Origin: a virus
Taxonomy: Duplodnaviria > Heunggongvirae > Uroviricota > Caudoviricetes
Direction: 5' to 3' (one strand)
DNA length: 64,000 nt
IMG/VR virus record: IMGVR_UViG_2909739949_000002
Location: 18,529 to 82,528 of that record
The position numbers were made by a program, and so were the translations under genes. Numbering within the stretch: position 1 is the first letter of the stretch; every line of letters begins with the position of its first letter. Shown one piece after another: positions 1 to 56,295 of the stretch. The notes below the pieces were generated by a model, which made no database searches, was not told the DNA's origin, and was given only the letters and a program-made list of their open reading frames with translations.

Positions 1-12
1 GATAAGAATGCC

Positions 13-3000
13 ATGAAGAGAATTGTTATTGGCGCTGGTGTTACAGCTCTATGCGTAGCAATGGACTTCGATCTAGATATATTCTCTACTATCTTGGACG
101 TTAAGAAACCAGGTAAAGTATTGAATAGAGGCTGGAACAAAATTGCGATCGCAGCAGAGCAAGGTTTAGATTTCCAAGACGGATACCAGCCTTATGAACA
201 AGCTGGTCTTGTGCTTAAACACATTAGCGAAGAAGGAGAAGAGACTGATATCGTAGTTAAGGGCGACAAAGCAATGACCCTAACTCACGATGGTAGATTC
301 CTAACAAATGGATCTGGTGTAGGTTTAACACGCAAGAAGTTTGCTTATAGTGCTCGCAAGACATTAAGAGCTACTTTCAACGCTGTCTCTCTGAAGAAAG
401 ATGAAAGCTTAGACTCAGTGAAAGCTGAGATAGAGAAAGAGTTAATGGCAATATTAGCGAGTGATAAAGTCATTACTCATAACTCGAAACACAAGGATAA
501 AGTCATCTTCAAATTCCGTGGTAAGGAGTTAATTAAATACCGTGGACTAAACCAAGACATAATCCTCAGTTCTAAGTATGGTTGTAGCTTCCAAGTGCGC
601 AAGCTAGCTACATCTAAATCTCTATCTATCCAATTAACCGTAGTATACTTTGCTAGCGACTACGAAATTAAGGGTCGCGGTATTGGCATCAAAGCTGTAC
701 TAAAGGATGGTAGAAAAGTTAGCATTTCCAGAAGAGATGGTAGTGATCTCAACTGGGAAGTAGCCCTAAACAGCGAGTGTTTAAAGGGTAACGCTGCTAG
801 GCTTCACCAATATTGCGAGTGGCTACTAGAACAAACTGGTAAGTCTTCTTATCTAGTAACAGATTATCAAACAAAGGAGTTTGAAAGACTGCATACACCT
901 TCATTGACTGAAGAAGGTGTATATGATGTACAAGACTTAGCTGATGAAACCTGTCACTTCTACAAGTGGTGGGAAGGCAGAAGCGAAAGTTATTTCATTC
1001 GCGACTATGTAGACTATGAGAACTATTTCCAAACTTTAGTTCTTGGTCATGCAAAGATGGGTAATAAAGGCGACTACTCTCTAGTAGAGAAAGCTTTATC
1101 TCATGAAGCTAATGCTGTTATTACCCTGATTAATCTCAAGACTGGTAAACCAACTAATAAAATCCAGGAGGCGTTAACAGAAGATGGACTAGTACTAATA
1201 GAAGAGAGAGTAACTGGTGTACTAGCTCCATACACCTTCCAAGTCGAAATGGCTACTACTAGAGAAACAACAGTAGCAGCACAATCACCAACGCTTCAAC
1301 AACTATGCTCCGCTTATGCAGCTTATCCTTCCTTAGGATATGCACTGCTAGAGAATGCACAAGAGACTGAAGATGCAATCATTGGGTGTGCAGCTATGGC
1401 ATTAAATGATCCAACTCTACTGGATCTAAACAATAGTGGAGAGTTGAGTGTAGAAGGTAAAGATTGGGAAGTAGGTAGTAAAGACATATCTGCAAAAGAA
1501 ATAGCAGAAAGTCTCAACCCTAGTATGTTCTCTATGGGATATGCAAATATCTATGGTGAGAGTGATGACCCATTCCTAGCTTTCAGCGAACCAGGAACAG
1601 ACAAGAAGTTCAAACCGTCCGTCTTAGTCAACCAAGTAGGCATCAATGCACCAATGGAAGGCGGTAAGGTAGACTTCAGCGTAAGAGATGTTATTGAAGG
1701 TACTGCGTGGAACTATCAAGTAAACGTGGGTTCTGGATATAATATGTCAAGCGTAATGGCCTGTGTAGCGGCTATGACTCGATATGAGTGGATCAAGGCT
1801 AGTAAGGCTAAAGACAAAGTAGCTTTTGCTAAAGCTATGGAGAAAATGAAGCTTGTAGCTAAGGTTCAAGGTATGTGTTGGCTAACAGGCTATGAAGATA
1901 GCTGGTTGTGTGGTTATAACCTAAAAGGCATGGAGTTGGCTAACAAACTTCACATGTTCCGAAAAGGTTATGTGGCTAAATCAAAAGATAATGAGGAGGT
2001 AAATTTCTCGGCGGTAATCGAACAGATTAAGGGTCAACTAGAGAAGATAGCTAATACTAAATTCTCTGATAATGAAGTAATTATGTTCTTATGGGCGTAT
2101 AGAATAGCTCGTGCTATCTCTGCTCTTGAGAAATATACTTCTGGGCCTGAAGGTGTTGCTAAAGCGTTTAACTTAACTGATGAAGGAGTAGAAGATAAAG
2201 AAGATTTAGATATGGTTGCATTATGCGGCGCGATGCGTAGATGTGACCAAGGAAGATTTGCAAACTTCCTAACACCAGAAGAAGAAGACAATTCTGAAGC
2301 TGGTGGTATTTCAGTTTGGATGTTCTTGAGAGAAAGATGGGTAGATGTACAAAACAAAGTACCTTACTTCCTCCGTAGGAAGATCTACAAATCTATGATT
2401 GTTCAAACAGAGTTTGCTGACTTGACTCGTAATATTAGTGCGGCTGGCGATGAAACTTCACTAAGAAAGAATGAGTCACCAAGAGTTAAACGGAAACCTA
2501 CTGCTAATGCAGGAGAAAGTAGAGTTCTAGTCACTTTACCTGATGCAGATATTGATCTTCCATTTATTCCATTGGAGTACAGTTCAGTAGACGAAGATAA
2601 CTATGGAACTGTAGTTAGCGGCTCGACAGAATTCTTAAAGTTTAAGCAACTAGGAGGTGCTTTTGAAGTAGTAAGAAGATTCTGTCCTATTGGTGAAGAT
2701 GGAAAGAGAGATACAAAGTATCGGAAAGCTGATGCTACCAAAGTACTAAAGTCAGTCTACAAAGTAACCGACTTCAATGGTACAGAATATCAGTTTGATG
2801 AAACATTGCATTTCTGGACTGAAGCCTTAAGCGCTGAGGAAACTCTGAAGATGGCACATAATCGTTATCCTAATGGATGCGTTATATGTTCCATCGATGG
2901 GAAGAATCCAGACAAAGAAACCGATCTGGAAGTGTACTTTAACTTTGGCGCTTTACTAAAGAGTGCTGCATTTATGGGAGGCGGTTCTTCTACTGGTATT

Positions 3001-3447
3001 GGTTTAAGCATTGTCGAATTGCTACATGGAATGGTAGATCGTTACGAGAATAGACCTAAGAACTGGACTACTAAAGCTAGAAATGCCCTAGCTGGTATCC
3101 AAGGTCAAATGAGAGAAATGTTAAAAGCAGGACTCTTACGTAGAATAGGCAGAACTGAACCATTTGCTCAAGGTGGTAAAGTAATGTCTAGCCATTCCTG
3201 TCCGAATGAGATTGTGACTCATGAAGGAGTAGAGTATTCTATTCCAGTAGTGAAGATGAATCCAAATGACGATATCGTCAAGGTAGGAGGTTACATAGAA
3301 GGATCTGTGGTGGCAGTTTATAGAACACCTCAGATTGCTAAACTCTATTGCATTGTAGTAATGGATGAGAACGTATCACTGGGTCACATTGAAGTTAATG
3401 CTCTACTATGGGCTAAATCCAATCGTGGTGATGGTGACGGTAAATAA
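13..3447 (+). CDS. large hypothetical protein (1144 aa), possibly virion-associated; no catalytic motif recognised
   Basis: uninterrupted 3.4-kb ORF; GC about 43%, higher than downstream genes; no P-loop or polymerase motifs seen. Confidence 0.55.
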   Translation: MKRIVIGAGVTALCVAMDFDLDIFSTILDVKKPGKVLNRGWNKIAIAAEQGLDFQDGYQPYEQAGLVLKHISEEGEETDIVVKGDKAMTLTHDGRFLTNGSGVGLTRKKFAYSARKTLRATFNAVSLKKDESLDSVKAEIEKELMAILASDKVITHNSKHKDKVIFKFRGKELIKYRGLNQDIILSSKYGCSFQVRKLATSKSLSIQLTVVYFASDYEIKGRGIGIKAVLKDGRKVSISRRDGSDLNWEVALNSECLKGNAARLHQYCEWLLEQTGKSSYLVTDYQTKEFERLHTPSLTEEGVYDVQDLADETCHFYKWWEGRSESYFIRDYVDYENYFQTLVLGHAKMGNKGDYSLVEKALSHEANAVITLINLKTGKPTNKIQEALTEDGLVLIEERVTGVLAPYTFQVEMATTRETTVAAQSPTLQQLCSAYAAYPSLGYALLENAQETEDAIIGCAAMALNDPTLLDLNNSGELSVEGKDWEVGSKDISAKEIAESLNPSMFSMGYANIYGESDDPFLAFSEPGTDKKFKPSVLVNQVGINAPMEGGKVDFSVRDVIEGTAWNYQVNVGSGYNMSSVMACVAAMTRYEWIKASKAKDKVAFAKAMEKMKLVAKVQGMCWLTGYEDSWLCGYNLKGMELANKLHMFRKGYVAKSKDNEEVNFSAVIEQIKGQLEKIANTKFSDNEVIMFLWAYRIARAISALEKYTSGPEGVAKAFNLTDEGVEDKEDLDMVALCGAMRRCDQGRFANFLTPEEEDNSEAGGISVWMFLRERWVDVQNKVPYFLRRKIYKSMIVQTEFADLTRNISAAGDETSLRKNESPRVKRKPTANAGESRVLVTLPDADIDLPFIPLEYSSVDEDNYGTVVSGSTEFLKFKQLGGAFEVVRRFCPIGEDGKRDTKYRKADATKVLKSVYKVTDFNGTEYQFDETLHFWTEALSAEETLKMAHNRYPNGCVICSIDGKNPDKETDLEVYFNFGALLKSAAFMGGGSSTGIGLSIVELLHGMVDRYENRPKNWTTKARNALAGIQGQMREMLKAGLLRRIGRTEPFAQGGKVMSSHSCPNEIVTHEGVEYSIPVVKMNPNDDIVKVGGYIEGSVVAVYRTPQIAKLYCIVVMDENVSLGHIEVNALLWAKSNRGDGDGK

Positions 3448-3751: not shown

Positions 3752-4357
3752 GTGATGCAGAGAATGACTATATTAACAGAATATAATCTAAGTTTTGAAG
3801 AGAAGCAAAGATTTGATGGCAATATGTTGGGAGATAGTAGCATAGTCTATAAGAGCAAAGAAACAAATGCTCCTAGATATCTACATTATTCTAAGCATAA
3901 AGAATATCTAATCTGGCTTTCTACAAAAGTAAATTACTTTACTAATAGACCTATTTGGAATAAGTTTGTCTTTGATAAAAGAACAAGAAAGACCTACTAT
4001 TCTTATTACATAGGTACTAAAAGTAGTTTATTCTTCAAGAACCAAAGAAGTAGGTGGTATATAGGGAGTAAAAAGATACTGCCTAATGACCTGATAATAG
4101 ATAAACATCTATTACTTCATTGGTACTTAGATGATGGAAGCAAAGCTACAAAAGGAGGAATATACTTTGCTACTGATGGATTTAGCTTTGAAGAAGCTGA
4201 AGCATTGAGTAACAAAATAGCAAAGTATACTAATCTAAATACAAGCCTACATACAAATCAAGGAAACCCTAGAGTGTATATATTCAAGAAAAACACTAAA
4301 GAGTTCTTTGATATCATAGGTAAGTGTCCAATAAGTAGCTTTGAATACAAGTGGTGA
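3752..4357 (+). CDS. LAGLIDADG-family homing endonuclease (free-standing)
   Basis: two LAGLIDADG-like motifs (FDGNMLGDSSIVY and LLHWYLDDGSKATKGG); AT-rich ORF in GC-richer flanks; weak RBS. Confidence 0.7.
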   Translation: MMQRMTILTEYNLSFEEKQRFDGNMLGDSSIVYKSKETNAPRYLHYSKHKEYLIWLSTKVNYFTNRPIWNKFVFDKRTRKTYYSYYIGTKSSLFFKNQRSRWYIGSKKILPNDLIIDKHLLLHWYLDDGSKATKGGIYFATDGFSFEEAEALSNKIAKYTNLNTSLHTNQGNPRVYIFKKNTKEFFDIIGKCPISSFEYKW

Positions 4358-4631: not shown

Positions 4632-4724
4632 CGTTGATCGCTTGAAGAAAGAATGCCGGAATGTAAGTTAGGTAGCTATCACTCTAGAATCTATACCGTT
4701 GATCGCTTGAAGAAAGAATGCCGG
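4632..4724. repeat. tandem direct repeat, 2 x ~65 bp with identical 28-bp core CGTTGATCGCTTGAAGAAAGAATGCCGG
   Basis: core at 4632-4659 and 4697-4724; second sub-repeat TAGGTAGCTAT / GGGTAGCTAT in each unit. Confidence 0.85.
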
Positions 4725-6756: not shown

Positions 6757-7521
6757 AGAGCTGGCAAAAGCTGGTCTAATCCGTTAATGTTTTAGGCGGC
6801 TTTAGTGGTAGAACTACCTGCCCACTTTCCATTAGGAAGATAATCACTATGTTACCTATAGTGGAAATGTTCTTATTAACTGATTAGTTAATAAGGTATG
6901 GTGGATTAGGTAATAGTTTTCTAGGAGTTATGAGGCAGCTTTTAGAAGATGAACAAGTTATAAGCCTCCCAAGTAACAGTTGATGAACTAATGATTAAGG
7001 GTAACTCAATAAGCCCCCTTGATTCTGATAGGTGCCTATTAGATGAAAAGGTGTCGAACTATCTTTCAAAAGTAGAGATAGGGAGATTAAGAAAAGATTG
7101 GGCTATTTCCTATCTAGAGGGAAGTAGATATTCTAGGAGATAGATTAACCACTATTGAATAGAATCTTAGGTTCATGTTCTCTAACCTATAAAGGACGGC
7201 TTGGTACCCCGTTCTTAAGTCCTACCAAAGGACGTAAAGAAATATAGATGAAGGGTGGTAGCTTCATCTATAAGAGAACCATGCTAACTAGGTAGTGTTA
7301 ATCTGCCTTTAAGTTAATAGGAGGCTGGTTACCTCCTATAACAATTAGCTGGTGGAACTGCTCCAAACTCTTATCTAGCAATAGATAGGAGACCGAATGA
7401 CTGGTAACAGGTATACGGAACTATTGAACTTGGGTGGCGATCTTGACCCATTTATCAGTAGGGGAGGTTCGATTCCTCTAACCTGTATTGTTAACTAATT
7501 TATTTAATTGGAGGTTGGGTC

Positions 7522-9062: not shown

Positions 9063-9135
9063 GGACGGTTAACTATCTGGAGATAGTAGCGGCCTCATAA
9101 GCCGCCATAGGTGAGTTCGATCCTCACACCGTCTA
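9063..9135 (+). tRNA. tRNA-Met (anticodon CAU)
   Basis: cloverleaf: acceptor GGACGGT/ACCGTCT, D-stem ACTA/TAGT, anticodon stem GCGGC/GCCGC with loop CTCATAA, T-arm GTGAG-TTCGATC-CTCAC, discriminator A. Confidence 0.8.
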
Positions 9136-15577: not shown

Positions 15578-16252
15578 ATGCCTAGTTTATTTGGTCTTAA
15601 AGCCATGATTGATCTGAGATCAGAGATATCTCGATCAGTTATGGAACTAAGTTGGAGAGATAACAAAGAGCAGTTCATAGCTCTTACTTGTTATGCGGGG
15701 GATAAAAGATTTGTTGGCAGCAAGAATATATTCAGATCAATGTTCTGCTTCATAGCAGAAAGGGATCTAGAAGTAGCTAAAGCTATCATAAGAAAGATAC
15801 CTTACCTAATTAACTGGGGTGAGGTAGTTAAGTTAATTGATGAGATAGATAATGAAGAGTTAGCTATCTATGCAGCATTGTTCTATGCGACAGTTCTAAG
15901 AGTCAGGAAGGATAGGTTAGCTATTAAATGGGCCCCTAGAGAGGGTAAAAGATTTCAAAGGGCTAGAAAGCTAATTATGGCTCAATTAGGAATTACTAGA
16001 AATAGTGAGTATAGAAAGTTCTTAGCTGAGTTAAATAAGGAATATGATACTTCCCTAGAAACCCTTATGTGTGAAGGGAGATGGGAAGATATTAATTATA
16101 CTCTTATCAGTAAGAGAGCCTTTACCTTATATAAGAATGCGTTTATTAAACATGATGGTAGGAGGGTAAGACTCTATCATCATGAGGATAGTAATAGAAG
16201 GAACTTCTTACAAATGGAGATTCTAATAACTAAGGAGGGATACAAGATATGA
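15578..16252 (+). CDS. hypothetical protein
   Basis: AAGGAG SD. Confidence 0.5.
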   Translation: MPSLFGLKAMIDLRSEISRSVMELSWRDNKEQFIALTCYAGDKRFVGSKNIFRSMFCFIAERDLEVAKAIIRKIPYLINWGEVVKLIDEIDNEELAIYAALFYATVLRVRKDRLAIKWAPREGKRFQRARKLIMAQLGITRNSEYRKFLAELNKEYDTSLETLMCEGRWEDINYTLISKRAFTLYKNAFIKHDGRRVRLYHHEDSNRRNFLQMEILITKEGYKI

Positions 16253-17531: not shown

Positions 17532-18269
17532 GGCGGGCTTCATTAGACGTTCCCTAATGTATAACCTAGATAGGAGTATAAGAGCTGGCTTCTAGGTCTT
17601 CTCTAGTAACGATTCTTACCAGCGTCATGGTTAATCCTCAATCCAAATAAGAGTAATAATGAAGAATAAGACTAGCAATTGGAGGTGGATACCTATCCGC
17701 TCCTCTGACTCAATAAGAGGAAGTAAATATAAAGTAATGAGTCTATTCTCTATCGACCCATCTAGATAGAGAAGAACTAGATGGCAATTCCTATAAGGAG
17801 TATTCTTATATAATCTATTAGGAATGGGTAGATTATATAAGATAGGTAGTCGGTTTAAGGCCGCCTTCTATTCATTAATTATCCTATTAATATGGGCTAG
17901 CCTTTAGGGTGAATTAGGAGAAGTAAGTTCAACTCTTACTACTACCATTAATAATGATAGCTATATCCCAATAGAAGGATTTATTAACTATACTAGGACT
18001 CTTCCCTATTGATACCTAGTATTAGTAGCACTGTAATAGGCTTTTATAACTGGAAGTTAATGAGAAACTACCATACCATTACATGACTTCATCCTTTATA
18101 AGTAGTGGTCAAGTTCAAAGGGGTTGAGTTTTATAGGTTTTAGTGAGAAACCATCTTCTATCTAAGGTTGTTAATTAGTAGGATAGTCGGATAGGAATTA
18201 ACTGTGCCTTTATTAATACCTATTTAATAAAGGTGAGTAGAATCTAGGAAAGGTAACTATAAGTTACAT

Positions 18270-18367: not shown

Positions 18368-18541
18368 ATGAAACTAATTAAGTTTGCCTTCTTTCCTCTA
18401 TTCCTAGTTATGTATCTAATATCTCCTAAGAGAAATATAAAGAAGGAGATAGAAAAAGAGGTATCTAGAAAGATAGAAGAAGGAGACCCACCCCCAGGTA
18501 TTATCTGGGAGTGGGAAATAGAAGATGGGGAAGATGAATAG
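18368..18541 (+). CDS. small membrane protein (57 aa), not in ORF track
   Basis: AAGGAAGGTG SD; TM N-terminus, acidic C-terminus. Confidence 0.4.
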   Translation: MKLIKFAFFPLFLVMYLISPKRNIKKEIEKEVSRKIEEGDPPPGIIWEWEIEDGEDE

Positions 18542-24755: not shown

Positions 24756-24869
24756 GTTTAATATACACGGGCAAGTATCTCCTCTCCCTTCTAAGGAGTA
24801 GAAAGAGTAACTGGAAACATGAAGGTTCGATCCCTTTCTTGCTCACTACAAATAAATAAAAACCTAAAT

Positions 24870-24925
24870 AAAATAGAGTTATTTATAGTTAACATATTTA
24901 GTTTAACTATAAATAACTCTATTTT
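24870..24925. repeat. 23-bp perfect inverted repeat AAAATAGAGTTATTTATAGTTAA-N10-TTAACTATAAATAACTCTATTTT
   Basis: in 280-bp AT-rich intergenic region; nearby direct repeat GACAGCAA(A/G)AAAAC. Confidence 0.85.
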
Positions 24926-25036
24926 ATTTAATTTACTAAATAATAGTTAAATTTTAAGGTTTTAAATAAACTGACAGCAAAACAAACAATAAAGCTATAC
25001 AAATTTGTTTATTTTTACATAGACAGCAAGAAAACT

Positions 25037-35966: not shown

Positions 35967-36404
35967 ATGTTATTAGATCAATGGATTCAATATAGTCCTC
36001 AGTATATCTACTTGAAAGGTTATACTGAGGACTTTTTTCCTTTTACTTATTTAGATTGGGATGAAGTAAAGGATGCTGAAAGTGAAGATGAGAATATAAC
36101 TTTCTTAGGGGTTAAGATGTTAGGGAATCATACAGATAAAGAATTCCCTAATTATTCTTATCATCTAGTGTTAAGAAATAGTAGGTTAATAGCTAAGGGG
36201 TATGGACAGAATAGAAGAAATATAGCACCTCAGTTACCAGGAACTATATTAGTAATCGATAGCTGGAAGTATCATCATGTTACTTGGGATAAGAGATTAA
36301 AGAGTAAAGAGGATCCCTTATGGATCTCTGCTTGTTTTGATAGTAATGAGTTAATAAGTAGGGACAGAATAATAGAAGTATTTAATAACTTCTTGGAGAA
36401 TTAG
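35967..36404 (+). CDS. hypothetical protein
   Basis: ORF 145 aa. Confidence 0.45.
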   Translation: MLLDQWIQYSPQYIYLKGYTEDFFPFTYLDWDEVKDAESEDENITFLGVKMLGNHTDKEFPNYSYHLVLRNSRLIAKGYGQNRRNIAPQLPGTILVIDSWKYHHVTWDKRLKSKEDPLWISACFDSNELISRDRIIEVFNNFLEN

Positions 36405-36406
36405 AA

Positions 36407-37186
36407 ATGAAAGACGCATTGGGAGATAGAATGAAGGAATTCTATGAGAATGTTTATAGAATTCATTTAACTAGAAGAACTCCTGTAATTCTAAGACTAG
36501 ATGGTAAGTCCTTCCATACTTACTGTAAATCTCTGAAGGATAGGTTTAATAAAGGATTCATGAGATGTATGGATCTAACTGCTATTAGATTAATGGGGGA
36601 GATACAGGGAGCCCAGCTTGCTTTTGTGCAGAGTGATGAGATTAGTATTCTTCTACATGATTATAAGAAACTAACATCTGAAGCATGGATGAAGAATAAT
36701 ATTCAGAAGATGGTTAGTATTAGTGCAGCTATAGCTTCAGTAGAGTTTACTAAGAATAGTCCTATCATTTGGGGATTTAAAGAACTAGATGACGGCTCCT
36801 CTATACCTATAACCAAAGAAGCATACTTTGATAGTAGAGTATTTACTATCCCAGAAGCGGAAGTATGTAATTACTTTATCTGGAGACAGAATGATGCAAC
36901 TAGAAACTCTATTCTTTCTTTAGGTCAAAGTCTCTTTTCACACAAACAGTTACAAGGATTGAACTGTTCTATAATTCAAGATATATGTCATGATAAAGGA
37001 CATAACTGGAATGATTTACCTACTAGTCATAAGAGAGGTAGATGCATAGTTAAAAAGTACCACAACTTTGTATCAGAAGGTGGAGTAGAGACTATAAGAA
37101 GTAAATGGGTAGTAGACGAAGAAATACCTATCTTTACTCAAGATAGAAACTATATAAATAAGTATTTGGCGGTTGATAATAGTTAA
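36407..37186 (+). CDS. Thg1-like protein (tRNA-His guanylyltransferase family; 3'-5' nucleotidyltransferase)
   Basis: GGAG SD; VILRLDGKSFHTY, AFVQSDEISILL, FDSRVFTIP, YFIWRQNDATRNS match Thg1 motifs including the catalytic Asp positions. Confidence 0.8.
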   Translation: MKDALGDRMKEFYENVYRIHLTRRTPVILRLDGKSFHTYCKSLKDRFNKGFMRCMDLTAIRLMGEIQGAQLAFVQSDEISILLHDYKKLTSEAWMKNNIQKMVSISAAIASVEFTKNSPIIWGFKELDDGSSIPITKEAYFDSRVFTIPEAEVCNYFIWRQNDATRNSILSLGQSLFSHKQLQGLNCSIIQDICHDKGHNWNDLPTSHKRGRCIVKKYHNFVSEGGVETIRSKWVVDEEIPIFTQDRNYINKYLAVDNS

Positions 37187-44237: not shown

Positions 44238-44474
44238 ATGAGTAATAATGAATCAAATAAGAGTGAGAATAATAAAGATATAGAACAGGAAGAAGATATA
44301 GATTGGATACTGAATCAGCCTATAGATATGAGGATTATTCCTATATCAAATACAGAAGGTAATGATGATTCTCCAAGAAGATCTATTAATCTAGATAGTT
44401 TAGAAAGGAATGTATCTATTGACACTCCCCTGCCTAAAGGCGAGGGGATTCTACATTCACAGACTCGCCGTTAG
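44238..44474 (+). CDS. hypothetical small protein; 3' end runs into IS right end (possibly truncated)
   Basis: AGGAG SD; last ~15 codons lie in GC-rich IS-derived sequence. Confidence 0.4.
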   Translation: MSNNESNKSENNKDIEQEEDIDWILNQPIDMRIIPISNTEGNDDSPRRSINLDSLERNVSIDTPLPKGEGILHSQTRR

Positions 44475-45795
44475 ACAGCAGGCTTGCGCCAACTGCCCAA
44501 GAGGGCAAATCTCCTGTAGCGTAAGTTCCCGTGTGCCCCACGGTACTGAGTCCTAATCTCAAAATGTTGATTGCTGCGTTGATGTCCCTATCTTCGGTAT
44601 ATCCGCAATGAGGGCAGATATGAGTCCTGCTGGACAGAGATTTTTTCACCTTCAAGCCACAGTTAGAGCAATTTTGACTTGTGTTATGGGGCGGAACTGC
44701 AACAGTCACTTTCCCATATTTATGACCAAAATACTCTAACCAACTACGGAAAGTGTACCAACCAGCATCAGATATTGATTTAGCTAAATGTCGATTTCGT
44801 ACCAGCCCTTTGACATTTAAATCTTCATAGGCTACCAAATCGTGAGATTGGATAACGGAGTACGCTAGTCTCTTGCAGTACTCTTTTCGTTGCCTACTTA
44901 CTTTTAAATGTTTACGGGCATATCTATTTCTAGCCTTGTGGTAATTGATTGATTGTCGCTGCTTGGCTTTTTTCCTCTGTTGACTGAATTTCTTAGACTT
45001 CTTGCGGTTGGCTCGGTTTAGCTGTTTTTCCGATTTACGGTAGAACTGGGGTGAAGGTTCAACATTACCTTTGTTGTCAGCGATGAAGTACTTCAATCCC
45101 AGATCAATACCCACTATTTGATTAGTCGGTTGAGTTTCTATCCTGACATCAATATCAATTGCAAATTGGGCATAATACCCATCTGCACGACGCACTAAAC
45201 GCACTCGTTTAATTTGCTTGATGCCGTAGTAATTGAGGTCGTAGGTTCCTTTTAGCTTCAGGGTTCCAATACCTTTTTTATCGGAGAAAGTTATCGCCTT
45301 TCTAGTTTCTGAAAGCTTCCACCCAGTTGATTTGTACTCAACCGAACGGCAGTTTTTCTTAAACTTTGGAAAACCCTTTTTACCCTTGACTTTTTTCTTG
45401 CAGTTATCGTAAAACCGAGCTATTGCGCTCCAAGAACGTTCAGCCGCAGATTGTCTAGCCATTGAGTTGAGTTCATCGGCAAAGGGAAACTCAGCAGCTA
45501 ATACCGCGCAGTATTTATTAAGGTCGTACCTACCAACATCTTTGTTATCCATCCAATAGCGCAAGCATTTGTTTTGGATGAATTGTGATGTGCGGATAGC
45601 CTCATCTATTGCTTGATATTGCTTATCTTTCCCCTTGACTTTAAACTCGTAAACAATCATGGGTATCGACCAATTAACCACATCTTTATGTTACCATAAA
45701 ACACATAAACATACCAAGGAAACAAAGGAATACTGAGGCGTAAACGCCTTAAATCGTTTTCATCCCTTGCCTAAAGGCTAAGGGTTTTCAACGGT
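44425..45795 (-). mobile_element. IS200/IS605-family (IS1341-type, tnpB-only) insertion sequence
   Basis: GC about 45-50% vs about 30% flanks; subterminal hairpins CCCCTGCCTAAAGGCGAGGGG (44432-44453) and CCCTTGCCTAAAGGCTAAGGG (45764-45788); no terminal IRs. Confidence 0.75.
44434..45681 (-). CDS. tnpB: TnpB (OrfB) RNA-guided endonuclease / IS605 accessory protein
   Basis: 415 aa; N-terminal MIVYEFKVK...; RuvC-like + C-terminal zinc finger CSNCG...CPHCG...DRDINAAINI. Confidence 0.85.
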   Translation of the reverse strand: MVNWSIPMIVYEFKVKGKDKQYQAIDEAIRTSQFIQNKCLRYWMDNKDVGRYDLNKYCAVLAAEFPFADELNSMARQSAAERSWSAIARFYDNCKKKVKGKKGFPKFKKNCRSVEYKSTGWKLSETRKAITFSDKKGIGTLKLKGTYDLNYYGIKQIKRVRLVRRADGYYAQFAIDIDVRIETQPTNQIVGIDLGLKYFIADNKGNVEPSPQFYRKSEKQLNRANRKKSKKFSQQRKKAKQRQSINYHKARNRYARKHLKVSRQRKEYCKRLAYSVIQSHDLVAYEDLNVKGLVRNRHLAKSISDAGWYTFRSWLEYFGHKYGKVTVAVPPHNTSQNCSNCGLKVKKSLSSRTHICPHCGYTEDRDINAAINILRLGLSTVGHTGTYATGDLPSWAVGASLLSNGESVNVESPRL

Positions 45796-48156: not shown

Positions 48157-50370
48157 ATGTCTAAATTAGATCAGTACTTGGATCTATTACAGCCTCAGTA
48201 TCTTAGTAGAGAATTCATTAAGAGTTATGAGAATAAGAAGCCACCCTTTGGTCAATTAGGTGCAGTTATATATATCAGAACTTATAGTAGGTTTATTGAA
48301 GAGTTACGTAGAAGAGAGAGATGGATTGAGACCATCAGTAGAGTAATAGAATATTCTCTAAGCTTAGATACAGTAACACCTTTTGAAGAGAAGCAAGAAG
48401 AGGCTAAAGAACTATTCGAGATGATGTTCTATCTTAAGGGATTACCTTCAGGTAGATCTTTATGGACTGCTGGCTCTGCACAAAGTAGAAGAGATTCTAG
48501 TTCTAATTGGAACTGTACCTTTAGGGTAATGGATTCTCTATCATCTTTTAGTGAAATTTATTATTGGTTATTAATTGGGGCGGGCACTGGATTTTCAGTA
48601 GAAGAGAAATACATTACTAAACTACCTAAGTTCTATAACAATAAGCAAATAGACCATGAGGAATATAATTGTCTATATCCTTATGTGAAGTCAGATGATT
48701 TATCTATTATTAGTGCTGATAAAGAAATAAGACTAGGTAAAGAATATCTCTATCTAAACGACGAAGAGTTTAGAGATAAGTTATCTGGTTTAGGTAGTGT
48801 AGTTCATATAGATATTGGAGATTCTAAAGAAGCGTGGTGTTTAACTCTTAGAACTCTACTAACTATATTTACTATTGAGTCTATTAGAAGGATTACATTT
48901 AACTATGATTTAATTAGACCAGAAGGTACTAGAATTAGAACCTTTGGTGGTAGAAGTAGTGGGCCTCGTGCTTTAAAAGAACTTATAGATAATATATTAA
49001 AGATATTTAACAGGTTTACTGAAGGTAGTGAGTTACTAGAGTTTGTTCTAGATTCAGTAGGTGTATTAGATATATTGAATGCAGTAGGGTTAAATGTTAA
49101 GAGTGGAGGTACTAGAAGAACAGCAGAGATAGGTCTAGGTAGTAGATTAGATAAAGCTTTTATTACTGCTAAAGAGAATCTATGGTCTGATCCTAAGAAA
49201 GAAGAATGGAAAGTTATTAGGACTATGTCTAATAATTCTATTCTTTATTATGAGAATCCAGGAGTAGAAGAGATTAGAAGAAACCTAGACTATACCCAGA
49301 ATGGAGATCCTGGTGTTTGGATTATAGGTAATAGTTTAAAGCTGGCTGAGAGTCCTGTAGCTGGAACAAATCCATGTGCGGAAGCAGCACTAGATGATAA
49401 ACAGTCTTGTAACTTGACAACTCAAGTTGTAGTGAATCATGTGTATCATGATTGGCTAATAGATAGTTATCAGTATGACTACGAAGCTAGCGAGAGAACT
49501 ATAGAGTTAATTACTCGTATTGGTTGTAGACAAACTCTAGCTAATCAATGGCATCCTGAATGGGATAAGACTCAGAAAAGAGATAGATTATTAGGTGTAT
49601 CCATGACTGGGATTATGGATGCGGCTGATATATTAGGTTGGGGTCTTAAGGAGCTTGAGGAATTCTTCAAGTGGGCTAAGAAAGTATCTATTGAAGAAGC
49701 TAATAGATATCACGATTATCTAGGTATTAATAGAAGTACTAGAGTAACATTACTTAAACCAGAAGGAACCTTATCTCTATTACCTACAGTAAGTAGTGGT
49801 ATTCATAGAGCATATGCACCTTATTTCTATAGAAGAGTTAGATTTAGTAAGACTGACCCATTAACTAAAGTACTCCTAGATGTAGGAATGGTACCAGTTC
49901 CAGAGAATGGACAGGGTGATGATCTCTATGCAGAAGAATGTAATACTTGGATATTTACATTCCCTATGAAGACTAATGCTTCTATTAGAGCTATTGATGA
50001 AAGTGCGATCGCACAATTAGAGAGATATAAAGTAGCTCAGAAGTATTATGCTGATCGGGGACATAACATTTCTATTACAGTAACCATTGAACCTAGAGAA
50101 TATGATGAAGTAGCTCAATGGTTATATGATAATTGGGATGATGTAATTGGTATAGCTTTCCTCAGTAGATTTGATCCTAGAGAAGGGGGTCAAGCAGCTT
50201 ATCCTAACATGCCTAATGAACCTTGTACTGAAGAAGAATATTTAGAGCTTAAGAGTAAGACACCAGAGTTAGATGAGTTAGAGTTGTTAGATTTACTTAC
50301 CAAGTATGAGACTGATTATGAAGACTACGAGTTAGATAGTGATTGTCTACAAGGATGTCCAGTTAAATAA
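48157..50370 (+). CDS. nrdJ: ribonucleotide reductase, class II (adenosylcobalamin-dependent, monomeric NrdJ-like)
   Basis: 737 aa; active-site N-P-C-A-E with second Cys 11 residues downstream (SCN), matching the Cys408/Cys419 spacing of class II RNR; LGVSMTGIMD loop; C-terminal CLQGC pair. Confidence 0.7.
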   Translation: MSKLDQYLDLLQPQYLSREFIKSYENKKPPFGQLGAVIYIRTYSRFIEELRRRERWIETISRVIEYSLSLDTVTPFEEKQEEAKELFEMMFYLKGLPSGRSLWTAGSAQSRRDSSSNWNCTFRVMDSLSSFSEIYYWLLIGAGTGFSVEEKYITKLPKFYNNKQIDHEEYNCLYPYVKSDDLSIISADKEIRLGKEYLYLNDEEFRDKLSGLGSVVHIDIGDSKEAWCLTLRTLLTIFTIESIRRITFNYDLIRPEGTRIRTFGGRSSGPRALKELIDNILKIFNRFTEGSELLEFVLDSVGVLDILNAVGLNVKSGGTRRTAEIGLGSRLDKAFITAKENLWSDPKKEEWKVIRTMSNNSILYYENPGVEEIRRNLDYTQNGDPGVWIIGNSLKLAESPVAGTNPCAEAALDDKQSCNLTTQVVVNHVYHDWLIDSYQYDYEASERTIELITRIGCRQTLANQWHPEWDKTQKRDRLLGVSMTGIMDAADILGWGLKELEEFFKWAKKVSIEEANRYHDYLGINRSTRVTLLKPEGTLSLLPTVSSGIHRAYAPYFYRRVRFSKTDPLTKVLLDVGMVPVPENGQGDDLYAEECNTWIFTFPMKTNASIRAIDESAIAQLERYKVAQKYYADRGHNISITVTIEPREYDEVAQWLYDNWDDVIGIAFLSRFDPREGGQAAYPNMPNEPCTEEEYLELKSKTPELDELELLDLLTKYETDYEDYELDSDCLQGCPVK

Positions 50371-54985: not shown

Positions 54986-55204
54986 ATGAGAAATAATATG
55001 GCACCTATAGAATTATCTCTAGAGCAACAGTTTAGTATTCGTTCCTTTGCTACTCAAGTAGAAGGAATGTCACATGAACAAGCTAAGGATTTCTTAGTGG
55101 ACTTATATAGACAAATGATAGTTAGAGAAGCCACCTATCAAGAGCTATTAAAACATCAATGGGGGCTGGATAATCCTCCTACCCTTAAGGATCAATTAGG
55201 ATAA
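54986..55204 (+). CDS. hypothetical small protein
   Basis: ORF 72 aa. Confidence 0.4.
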   Translation: MRNNMAPIELSLEQQFSIRSFATQVEGMSHEQAKDFLVDLYRQMIVREATYQELLKHQWGLDNPPTLKDQLG

Positions 55205-55249: not shown

Positions 55250-55368
55250 GGTACTGCTCCCTCTTCTGTCGAAGAATGAGATAGAAGCCATAGATAGTTA
55301 CTTCGGTTAAATCAAGGTTCAACTCCTTAAACTCTCATTGAGAGTATGTACTATCTAGTCCACCGTCC
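55250..55368 (+). ncRNA. Y-RNA-like structured RNA unit a (with tRNA-like module)
   Basis: 5' GGTACTGCT ... TAGATAGT-TTACTTC ... T-arm AAGG-TTCAACT-CCTT, closed acceptor AAACTCTC-ATT-GAGAGTAT ... ACTATCTA ... CCACCGTCC. Confidence 0.5.
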
Positions 55369-55396
55369 TTATATAAATAAGCATTTAAATATAGAT

Positions 55397-55465
55397 GGGT
55401 GCTGCTAATTAAGAGTTACTTCTTTTAGGGTAAAGACACAGTAAGACTCTAATGCTCACTGCCCC
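55397..55465 (+). ncRNA. Y-RNA-like structured RNA unit b (short form)
   Basis: GGGTGCTGCT-AATTAAGAG-TTACTTC ... ACTCTAAT ... CACTGCCCC; internal helix ATTA(A)GAGT/ACTCTAAT. Confidence 0.5.
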
Positions 55466-55483
55466 ATTTTTAATCTTCTCAAT

Positions 55484-55672
55484 ATGGAATGGAATAAGGA
55501 GATAGATTTACTCTTTGATAAATGGATAGAGATATCAATAGAGAAAGGTGAATGGTTTTACTTTTCAATAAAAGAAATCTATGATGTAGATCCTAAGTAT
55601 CAAGGAGTATTAGGTAAAACTGATTCAAGACCTGTATTTGAATTAGGATTTAGATTACCTTTTAAGATCTAA
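55484..55672 (+). CDS. questionable small ORF (62 aa) inside the RNA array
   Basis: no SD; lies between units b and c. Confidence 0.25.
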   Translation: MEWNKEIDLLFDKWIEISIEKGEWFYFSIKEIYDVDPKYQGVLGKTDSRPVFELGFRLPFKI

Positions 55673-55682
55673 ATAAATTAGA

Positions 55683-55809
55683 GGTGCTGCTCTAGATAGT
55701 TACTTCAGTAAAATCGTTCGGTTGTTAGTTCAAGTCTAACTATTACCCAAGGGTAATATAGCTCAATGGTAGAGCAAATGAAAAGATAAAACTATCTAAC
55801 CCACTGCCC
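55683..55809 (+). ncRNA. Y-RNA-like structured RNA unit c (with tRNA-like module 55724-55776)
   Basis: GGTGCTGCT-CTAGATAG-TTACTTC; T-arm GTTAG-TTCAAGT-CTAAC; acceptor TATTACCC-AA-GGGTAATA; D-arm GCTC-AATGGTA-GAGC; helix TAGATAGTT/AACTATCTA; 3' CCACTGCCC. Confidence 0.6.
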
Positions 55810-55820
55810 TCTTAGGAAAT

Positions 55821-55891
55821 GGGTACTGCTAGTTAAGGTTACTTCTATTAAAGCCAACAAACAGAGACAATACCTTAACGCTTACCGTCCC
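55821..55891 (+). ncRNA. Y-RNA-like structured RNA unit d (short form)
   Basis: GGGTACTGCT-AGTTAAGG-TTACTTC ... ACCTTAAC ... TTACCGTCCC; helix GTTAAGGT/ACCTTAAC. Confidence 0.5.
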
Positions 55892-55898
55892 ATTTAAT

Positions 55899-55970
55899 CC
55901 AGTCTTAGTTCATCGGTAGAATAGGCCTTTTGGGAAGGTCGGGTAACTGGTTCAATTCCAGTAGACTGGA
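55899..55970 (+). tRNA. tRNA-Pro (anticodon UGG)
   Basis: acceptor CCAGTCT/AGACTGG, D-stem GTTC/GAAT, anticodon stem GGCCT/AGGTC loop TTTGGGA, T-arm ACTGG-TTCAATT-CCAGT, discriminator A. Confidence 0.75.
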
Positions 55971-56046
55971 TTTAACTAACTAGTACTAAAGTGATGTAAT
56001 CATGTAGATTACTTCTCTTTAGCTTATAAGGGTTAGTTAGAATAGA

Positions 56047-56198
56047 AGTGCTGATAAGTAGAGATACATCAATAAATTAGATGTCCGTAGGTTCAAATCC
56101 TACTATTATTAGGTAACTAGTAATATGGCTGAGTGGCTAAAAGCATCTATTCTTAAAGAGTAGAGACATCACATACCATTTCTCTACTGACTACTGCC
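56047..56198 (+). ncRNA. Y-RNA-like structured RNA unit e (with tRNA-like module 56087-56144); preceded by degenerate partial unit at ~55990
   Basis: AGTGCTGAT-AAGTAGAGA-TACATC; T-arm GTAGG-TTCAAAT-CCTAC; acceptor TATTATT-A-GGTAACT-AGTAATA; D-arm GCT-GAGTGGCTAAA-AGC; helix AGTAGAGA/TCTCTACT; 3' CTACTGCC. Confidence 0.5.
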
Positions 56199-56212
56199 TT
56201 CTAGATATGAAA

Positions 56213-56287
56213 GGTACTGAATAGATAGAGATACTTCTACCGCAAATGGAAACATGGTAAACAAACCCTCTCTATCATCTACTGTCC
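56213..56287 (+). ncRNA. Y-RNA-like structured RNA unit f (short form)
   Basis: GGTACTGAA-TAGATAGAG-ATACTTC ... CTCTCTATC ... CTACTGTCC; helix GATAGAGA/TCTCTATC. Confidence 0.5.
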
Positions 56288-56295
56288 TTTTAGTA

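Follow-up and report, generated by a model that had tools for sequence, protein, structure and literature searches.

What might a homolog of the tRNA-His guanylyltransferase Thg1 do on a large, phage-like DNA element from a cyanobacterial assembly? The question arises from a 64,000-nucleotide (nt) stretch of the IMG/VR virus record IMGVR_UViG_2909739949_000002 (positions 18,529 to 82,528; this whole stretch is referred to below as the window, and all coordinates are window positions unless stated otherwise), in which one open reading frame (ORF) encodes a Thg1-like protein (TLP):

36407..37186, + strand: TLP gene, ATG-to-stop ORF of 259 amino acids (aa), stop codon included

Overall, we favor as reasonably probable that this gene encodes a phage-carried, catalytically competent TLP of the bacterial type that performs templated repair of tRNA 5' ends. 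Below, we consider in turn what the protein is, whether its active site is complete, what kind of element carries it, and which RNAs it may act upon.

A sequence-only reading of the window had placed the ORF among the Thg1-like 3'-to-5' nucleotidyltransferases on the strength of four motifs, and this placement was borne out by profile hits, catalytic residues, the predicted fold and similarity to the characterized TLP of Bacillus thuringiensis (BtTLP). The Pfam Thg1 profile (PF04446), the check proposed in that reading, matched the protein with 83.3 bits (E = 1.9e-23; cutoff, 29.2), residues 7-149 aligning to profile positions 2-130 of 130, and PHROG 4717 ("tRNA-His guanylyltransferase") matched with E = 1.2e-80 (residues 1-255 on profile positions 1-240 of 250); no NCBIfam model matched. 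The PDB entry 4kgk, deposited as "Thg1-like uncharacterized protein" and corresponding to BtTLP, was matched over its full length (E = 2e-61), with 45% identity across 253 alignment columns. Consistently, an AlphaFold2 model built on an alignment of 24 homologs (mean predicted local distance difference test score [pLDDT], 90.7; predicted template modeling score [pTM], 0.87) retrieved 32 PDB structures by Foldseek at E <= 1e-3, all 32 of which are Thg1 or TLP structures, and the top match was again BtTLP (4kgm_A; E = 1e-26; template modeling [TM] score of 0.89, target-normalized). Judged by sequence and modeled fold, the product of ORF 36407-37186 is almost certainly a TLP, the matches being much stronger than chance could produce.

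Whatever database names say, its sequence marks the protein as a bacterial-type TLP and not a bona fide eukaryotic Thg1, because it is 45% identical to BtTLP, scores weakly against eukaryotic Thg1s (E values of 1e-9 to 8e-6, versus 2e-61 for BtTLP) and lacks the eukaryote-specific HINNLYN segment. More specifically, the Candida albicans Thg1 segment WRQVDCHINNLYN aligns opposite WRQNDATRNSI plus a gap in the window TLP, such that CHINNLYN of the C. albicans enzyme lies opposite ATRNSI and the gap. The candidate assignment as a eukaryotic tRNA-His guanylyltransferase was rejected on the missing HINNLYN motif and on structural-alignment identities of 17-22%.

All four motifs named in the sequence-only reading were present, and, together with one further segment, could be aligned to 4kgk as follows:

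36494..36517, + strand: motif RLDGKSFH, residues 30-37
36533..36547, + strand: LKDRF segment, residues 43-47 (CAKPF in BtTLP)
36629..36646, + strand: motif QSDEIS, residues 75-80
36827..36853, + strand: motif FDSRVFTIP, residues 141-149
36881..36910, + strand: motif WRQNDATRNS, residues 159-168, the TLP-type version of this segment

Residue roles and numbering were taken from the BtTLP structural paper (PMC3701042), and conservation was scored in the alignment of 24 homologs. The catalytic aspartates, whose loss the sequence-only reading had named as grounds for refutation, were intact: the metal-binding carboxylates D32 and D77 correspond to BtTLP D30 and D75, and the third carboxylate, E78, to BtTLP E76 (D29, D76, and E77 in human Thg1). 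The triphosphate contacts R30, K101, R144, and R18 correspond to BtTLP R28, K99, R131, and R16', of which R28 contacts the phosphate of the incoming nucleoside triphosphate (NTP) and R131 its gamma-phosphate (PMC3701042). Likewise, we identified the salt-bridge residue E14 (BtTLP E12), the activation-step residue S76 (BtTLP S74), the conserved arginine R160 (BtTLP R147), and F36 and H37, equivalent to BtTLP F34 and H35, which contact the activating nucleotide through the F34 main-chain amide and an H35 bond to the 3'-OH. Across the 24 homologs, R30, K101, R144, R18, and E14 were invariant, as were S76, D77, and E78, F141, D142, and S143, and R160, D163, N167, and S168, and D32 was at least 90% conserved. 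Sequence and model make it highly likely that the window TLP is catalytically competent.

One column tells against an enzyme equivalent to BtTLP in every respect. The position of the ATP-positioning lysine, K43 in BtTLP, is occupied by D45 in the window TLP, with K44 and R46 on either side, and this substitution may change how nucleotides are used during activation. In BtTLP, the K43A exchange lowers ATP-dependent activation approximately 10-fold and leaves GTP-dependent activation unchanged (PMC3701042). The LKDRF variant is common to the closest relatives (P0002, P0003, P0005, P0010, and P0031), and LKNKF occurs in P0009 and P0067. Because K43A harms only ATP-dependent activation in BtTLP and the lysine is out of register here, the LKDRF clade is possibly shifted toward GTP and not functionally dead.

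Is the gene carried by a phage? The exact TLP protein is encoded on contig JACJQF010000002.1 (359,493 bp) of assembly GCA_014696495.1, from Calothrix sp. FACHB-1219. We inspected ~78 kb of this contig, that is, the window plus ~10 kb downstream and 5 kb upstream. Several features make it likely that the contig is a jumbo cyanophage and that carriage of the TLP is by phage. Strand bias is pronounced, with 96 of the 104 window ORFs of at least 60 aa on the + strand. The window encodes NblA, two MazG-like NTP pyrophosphohydrolases, a class II ribonucleotide reductase, a LAGLIDADG homing endonuclease, a T5orf172/MUG113 protein, a T4 Y07C-family protein, a DNA polymerase exonuclease subunit and a spore-photoproduct-lyase-like protein, as well as TnpB and a ParB-like protein, and R2K ATP-grasp genes lie just past its downstream end (L085). 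Of these, NblA and the MazG-like genes are classic auxiliary genes of cyanophages. The closest relatives of the TLP, at 61% and 58% identity, reside on metagenomic contigs of 119 kb and 262 kb that are of phage type, with a similar small-ORF style; one of these contigs has T4 rIIB, and the 262-kb contig has three more genes in common with the window.

Alternatively, the contig could be a plasmid or chromosomal island of Calothrix, in which case the TLP would serve the cyanobacterium. This view draws on the origin of the contig in a cyanobacterial isolate assembly and on chromosomal TLPs known in some bacteria, e.g., Paenibacillus, and three further points both speak for it and count against phage carriage: we saw no capsid, terminase, tail or other virion genes in the ~78 kb inspected, the element has no nucleotide-level match to any GenBank phage, and the ParB-like gene and TnpB would fit a plasmid as well. 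Nevertheless, the organization and content of the genes are phage-like, NblA and MazG-like genes are typical of cyanophages, the closest TLP relatives sit on the phage-type metagenomic contigs, and none of the 80 best cellular TLP carriers is a cyanobacterial genome. We regard a cellular origin of the TLP gene as quite unlikely.

Phage carriage of TLP genes proved to be common. A TLP homolog was found in 164 of 50,697 GenBank phage records, nearly all annotated as "tRNA-His guanylyltransferase," and on at least 586 IMG/VR contigs, mostly of 100-480 kb; at least 7,948 proteins match the TLP at E <= 1e-10. The GenBank phage homologs are 27-50% identical to the window TLP, and its best metagenomic relative 61%. 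A comparison of jumbo phages (Iyer et al. 2021) treats Thg1 as a sporadic 5'-end restoration or RNA-repair enzyme and reports TROVE in a small subset (PMC7824862). Moreover, BtTLP shows 75-77% identity to the TLPs of lytic Bacillus cereus-group myophages (Hobo, BM15, Bcp1, and others), examples of which are:

MH638309.1, 114209-114919: TLP of a B. cereus-group phage
KJ451625.1, 115192-115902: TLP of a B. cereus-group phage

Thus, the biochemistry of BtTLP describes a phage-associated clade. This link to B. cereus phages is absent from the Thg1 review literature that we consulted, and the 2019 review of the field leaves phages unmentioned (PMC6471195). TLP genes are routine in large phages, and the identification made in the sequence-only reading is correct and concerns a less unusual gene than that reading implied. 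Going by sequence, the window TLP is a divergent new member of the family, at most 61% identical to anything else found, and apparently the first TLP tied to a cyanobacterium-associated element within the collections searched.

If the window TLP acts as BtTLP does, it would first activate the 5'-monophosphate of an RNA with a recessed 5' strand, using ATP or GTP; it would then add nucleotides in the 3'-to-5' direction by Watson-Crick templating, with D32 and D77 coordinating two metal ions, and would go on copying the 3' acceptor strand up to a complete 7-bp stem. The primary activity of BtTLP is 5'-end repair (PMC3701042), and TLPs work independently of the anticodon (PMC6471195). We infer the enzymatic activity, the tRNA substrate and the damage-repair purpose from homology, and it is an even call whether the role in vivo would be the repair or maintenance of host or phage tRNAs shortened at their 5' ends during infection. 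Two candidate substrates, both announced in the sequence-only reading, were recovered in the window:

55899-55970, + strand: tRNA-Pro(UGG), found by ARAGORN and Rfam (53.4 bits)
9063-9135, + strand: tRNA-Met-type (CAU), RF00005 47.4 bits in a focused scan (E = 1.5e-9; gathering threshold, 29), with a cloverleaf fold

A link of TLPs to tRNA draws comparative support from 4 of 80 viral TLP loci, at which the TLP gene sits inside or beside a tRNA array, and from the listing of Thg1 among the RNA-repair enzymes of jumbo phages (Iyer et al. 2021; PMC7824862). A number of observations weigh against repair as the role. No tRNA lies within 10 kb of the TLP gene in the window, at the four closest loci or in 70 of the 80 viral TLP loci; any tRNA is found within this distance at 10 of the 80. 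Tight genomic linkage between TLP and tRNA genes was rejected on these counts, and no conserved partner gene emerged, synteny being loose and confined to one 262-kb relative. Other RNA-repair enzymes (RtcB, Rnl/RNA ligase, Pnkp, and CCA-adding enzyme) gave no match in the window at E <= 1e-5. We know of no nuclease that trims tRNA 5' ends in phage infection, and the damage is hypothetical. Furthermore, we found no experimental study or measured activity of any phage TLP in the literature searched.

The sequence-only reading had also suggested that the enzyme repairs tRNAs damaged by host anticodon nucleases. For a TLP alone this is chemically implausible, because such an enzyme builds on a 5' end opposite the 3' acceptor strand and has no means of rejoining a cut anticodon loop; the RNA ligase, Pnkp or RtcB that might have joined it were, as noted, not found in the window.

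Might the TLP instead be a literal tRNA-His guanylyltransferase, adding G-1 opposite C73 on phage or host tRNA-His for charging by histidyl-tRNA synthetase (HisRS)? Bacterial tRNA-His genes normally encode G-1, and in the sole phage tRNA-His captured beside a TLP gene (locus L051) the base at -1, facing C73, is likewise an encoded G. Neither the window nor its flanks yielded a tRNA-His, although these make up only ~78 kb of the 359-kb contig and a phage tRNA-His without G-1 could lie beyond. Databases name the family after this function, and bacterial and archaeal TLPs do add G-1 opposite C73 in vitro, BtTLP even complementing a yeast thg1 deletion (PMC6471195); the HINNLYN segment, however, is absent from the window TLP. 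In addition, at least 20 of the 164 TLP-encoding phage records are of phages that infect Caulobacter or Brevundimonas, members of the RRCH alphaproteobacterial clade, in which tRNA-His carries A73 and lacks G-1 (PMC3937112), so that G-1 addition cannot be the general role of phage TLPs. For the window TLP, we consider this role unlikely. The abundance of TLPs on large phages, the likeness of BtTLP to phage TLPs and these G-1-free hosts together point to tRNA 5'-end maintenance during infection as the place to seek the natural function.

The two window tRNAs also bear on a further possibility, namely, mitochondrial-style 5' editing, in which mismatched 5' acceptor nucleotides of phage tRNAs would be removed and then rewritten by the TLP. 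Of all TLP roles, only editing has been proven physiologically (DdiTLP3; PMC6471195), and the window tRNA-Met begins with a G1·U72 wobble pair. Nevertheless, G·U is a legitimate pair, and tRNA-Pro(UGG) has a perfect 7-bp acceptor stem (with A73, and CCA not encoded). When we checked the acceptor stems of the 62 phage tRNAs located within 10 kb of TLP genes, anchoring the register on the T-loop, 58 were perfect 7-bp stems, and only 2 showed anything in pairs 1-3, one of them being a tRNA-His register artifact. Editing is accordingly a very remote prospect. In the same 62 tRNAs (loci L046, L051, L053, L077, and others), we noted T at position -1 in 48 and a -1 base able to pair with the discriminator in 46; such pairing shifts the ARAGORN register by one base, as for the window tRNA-Pro (55898-55971, versus 55899-55970 by Rfam).

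The tRNA-Met(CAU) is noncanonical in other respects. It has an anticodon loop CUCAUAA, A73, no encoded CCA, and a D-arm with a 6-bp stem and a short 4-nt loop, and it was missed by default ARAGORN and by whole-window Rfam cmscan at both thresholds, being seen in the focused scan only. More noncanonical tRNAs on the contig may escape default scans likewise. A search for T-arm-like hairpins (5-bp stem plus TTCRANN loop) returned seven hits, each on the + strand and in a noncoding gap, whereas the - strand gave none:

7463, 9111, 17923, 24821, 55724, 55946, and 56087, + strand: T-arm-like hairpins

Two of the elements bearing them, at 7407-7488 and 17845-17947, were tried as tRNAs and rejected, as they did not score as tRNA; they lie in gene-free, relatively structured stretches of 0.8-1.2 kb. 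A third, at 24769-24845 (+ strand), reached 28.0 bits against the Rfam tRNA threshold of 29; its 7-bp acceptor stem is perfect and its T-arm is good, the D-arm is absent, the anticodon-type loop reads CUUCUAA, and there is a long extra region. A long AT-rich inverted repeat (24866-24935) follows it.

A different class of substrate is suggested by the tRNA-like Y RNAs that the sequence-only reading had described and that our analysis recovered as a repeated array of Y-RNA-like modules. An array at 55251-56362 (+ strand) comprises seven modules with the signature GT[AG]CTG...AC[CT]G[CT]C, versus 0.65 expected window-wide, each with a closing helix GGTRCTG...ACYGYCC. Three long modules (55251-55367, 55684-55808, and 56048-56198) contain permuted tRNA-like T-arm and D-arm cores, and the other four are short hairpins; tRNA-Pro is located between modules 4 and 5. 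Only module 3 resembles Rfam YrlA, at a sub-threshold 35.7 bits (gathering threshold, 69; E = 8e-6 in a focused scan). NblA (54986-55201) lies just upstream of the array, which ends 70 nt before a TROVE/Ro60 gene (56432-58039, + strand; 535 aa; 44 bits versus a Pfam cutoff of 23) whose product shares 45% identity with the TROVE protein of crAss001. Compared with the TLP, this Ro60/Y-RNA array and the noncanonical tRNA-like elements are the more unusual finds. Another Ro-like ORF, shorter than the first (15578-16252, + strand; 224 aa), matches the phage TROVE family (phrog_850, 2e-15) only over the N-terminal half of that family and Pfam DUF2828 weakly; noncoding gaps of 430-470 nt lie on both sides of it, and the Y-like module signature was not found nearby.

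Could the TLP complete or remodel the 5' ends of such RNAs, i.e., the Ro60-bound Y-RNA modules or other tRNA-like elements of the phage itself? Besides the presence in the window of a Ro60 gene preceded by seven modules, three of them with tRNA-like T- and D-arm domains, this proposal can call on DdiTLP4, which acts on non-tRNA substrates (PMC6471195), and on the joint occurrence of TLP and TROVE in ~13 phage records, versus ~0.2 expected if the two were independent. The latter figure comes from a concatenated query (232 places in 217 records) by genus arithmetic; 7 of the ~13 records are from Brevundimonas and 4 from Caulobacter, and Ralstonia RsoM2USA and an uncultured phage of 635 kb would account for the remainder. 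The co-occurrences are confined to jumbo phages larger than 270 kb, with 11 of 13 in one lineage, so that size and ancestry can explain them. Moreover, none of the 46 Bacillus phage records with a TLP has TROVE, none of the 20 Bacteroides (crAss001-type) phage records with TROVE has a TLP, the TLP and TROVE genes are 19 kb apart in the window, and the terminal helices of the folded Y-like modules are already paired throughout. The earlier suggestion that the enzyme matures the phage's own Y-like RNAs thus found no comparative support, and we hold action on these RNAs to be improbable. Obligate TLP-Ro60 coupling was rejected, as the majority of phages with either gene do not have the other.

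A broader proposal, to which we give similarly little weight, is that the TLP, Ro60 and the seven Y-like modules form a noncoding RNA toolkit that would rebuild the 5' ends of captured tRNAs or tRNA mimics, or would counter a hypothetical host immunity that clips tRNA 5' ends. If either version were true, it would be the first physiological role for bacterial-type TLPs, whose physiological role is an open question in the field (2019 review; PMC6471195). Taken alone, the window TLP does not change existing knowledge; it adds a divergent, cyanobacterium-associated member, from a genome in which tRNAs and a Ro60/Y-RNA locus also occur.

Within the element, the TLP gene looks native and expressed, judging from its GC content (33.8%, versus 34.3% for the window), its abutment on the preceding ORF and an upstream Shine-Dalgarno-like element, which was read directly from the sequence:

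36395..36398, + strand: GGAG Shine-Dalgarno-like element, 8 nt 5' of the TLP ATG and inside the 3' end of the preceding ORF

The preceding ORF (145 aa) ends with a TAG stop at 36402-36404, 2 nt before the TLP ATG, and the position of the GGAG and the abutment of the two ORFs make translational coupling likely. The ORFs flanking the TLP gene have no PHROG, Pfam or PADLOC assignment, and PADLOC defense models gave zero matches for the TLP and 7 neighboring ORFs (E <= 0.01). Promoter and terminator scans around the gene were uninformative, promoter-like sites being fewer than in shuffled sequences. The protein is deposited as [quoted passage not shown] and its UniRef name is tRNA(His) guanylyltransferase.

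Elsewhere on the element, we observed a giant ORF of 2,031 aa (contig positions 100,980-107,075), the C-terminal part of which occupies window positions 1-3447 (+ strand); it has no Pfam hit, no tblastn match in the 50,697 phage records, and a weak match to the unannotated phrog_30979. The LAGLIDADG homing-endonuclease ORF (3752-4357) comes directly after it, followed by a 650-nt gap with a perfect 28-nt direct repeat (4632-4659 and 4697-4724). TnpB (44434-45681, - strand; OrfB_IS605 and Cas12f-like TNB domains) is on the minority strand and may represent either an insertion of the IS200/IS605 type or an RNA-guided nuclease that has been domesticated. The class II (B12-dependent) ribonucleotide reductase (48157-50370) co-occurs in the window with a cobalamin adenosyltransferase-family (Cob_adeno_trans) gene, and the 119-kb relative (L002) has Cob_adeno_trans ~10 kb from its TLP gene.

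Among known systems, BtTLP (PDB 4KGK/4KGM; Hyde et al. 2013, PMC3701042) stands closest. The two proteins have a similar fold, the same carboxylates and triphosphate-contacting arginines and lysine, and the WRQxDAxxNS segment; the window TLP differs in a variable insertion that is 13 residues longer, after the helix ending at approximately residue 118, in LKDRF in place of CAKPF, and in S171 in place of M158, and its activity is predicted only. The phage TLPs of PHROG 4717 (Bacillus phages Bcp1, Bc431v3, BSP38, and G; Xanthomonas phage XacN1; and phiCbK-like Caulobacter phages) belong, like the window TLP, to large tRNA-encoding elements, but no GenBank homolog is more than 50% identical to it. 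The Methanosarcina acetivorans TLP (PDB 5AXK-5AXN; Kimura et al. 2016, PMC4820378) has superfamily and fold in common with the window protein (Foldseek E ~1e-14; TM, 0.72-0.81), whereas its archaeal branch is only weakly related in sequence (phmmer E = 4.6e-7). Eukaryotic Thg1s (human 3OTB, C. albicans 3WBZ, and yeast 5XOX) have a palm-like core, the carboxylates and two-metal chemistry in common with the window TLP; in contrast, they add a nontemplated G-1 opposite A73, guided by the GUG anticodon, and they possess HINNLYN, which the window TLP lacks. Finally, Dictyostelium TLP3 and TLP4 (PMC5041481, PMC6471195) are eukaryotic organellar or cytosolic enzymes; alone among TLPs, they have a physiological role that is assigned or suspected (5' editing for TLP3 and non-tRNA substrates for TLP4), and they serve as conceptual models for the phage TLP.

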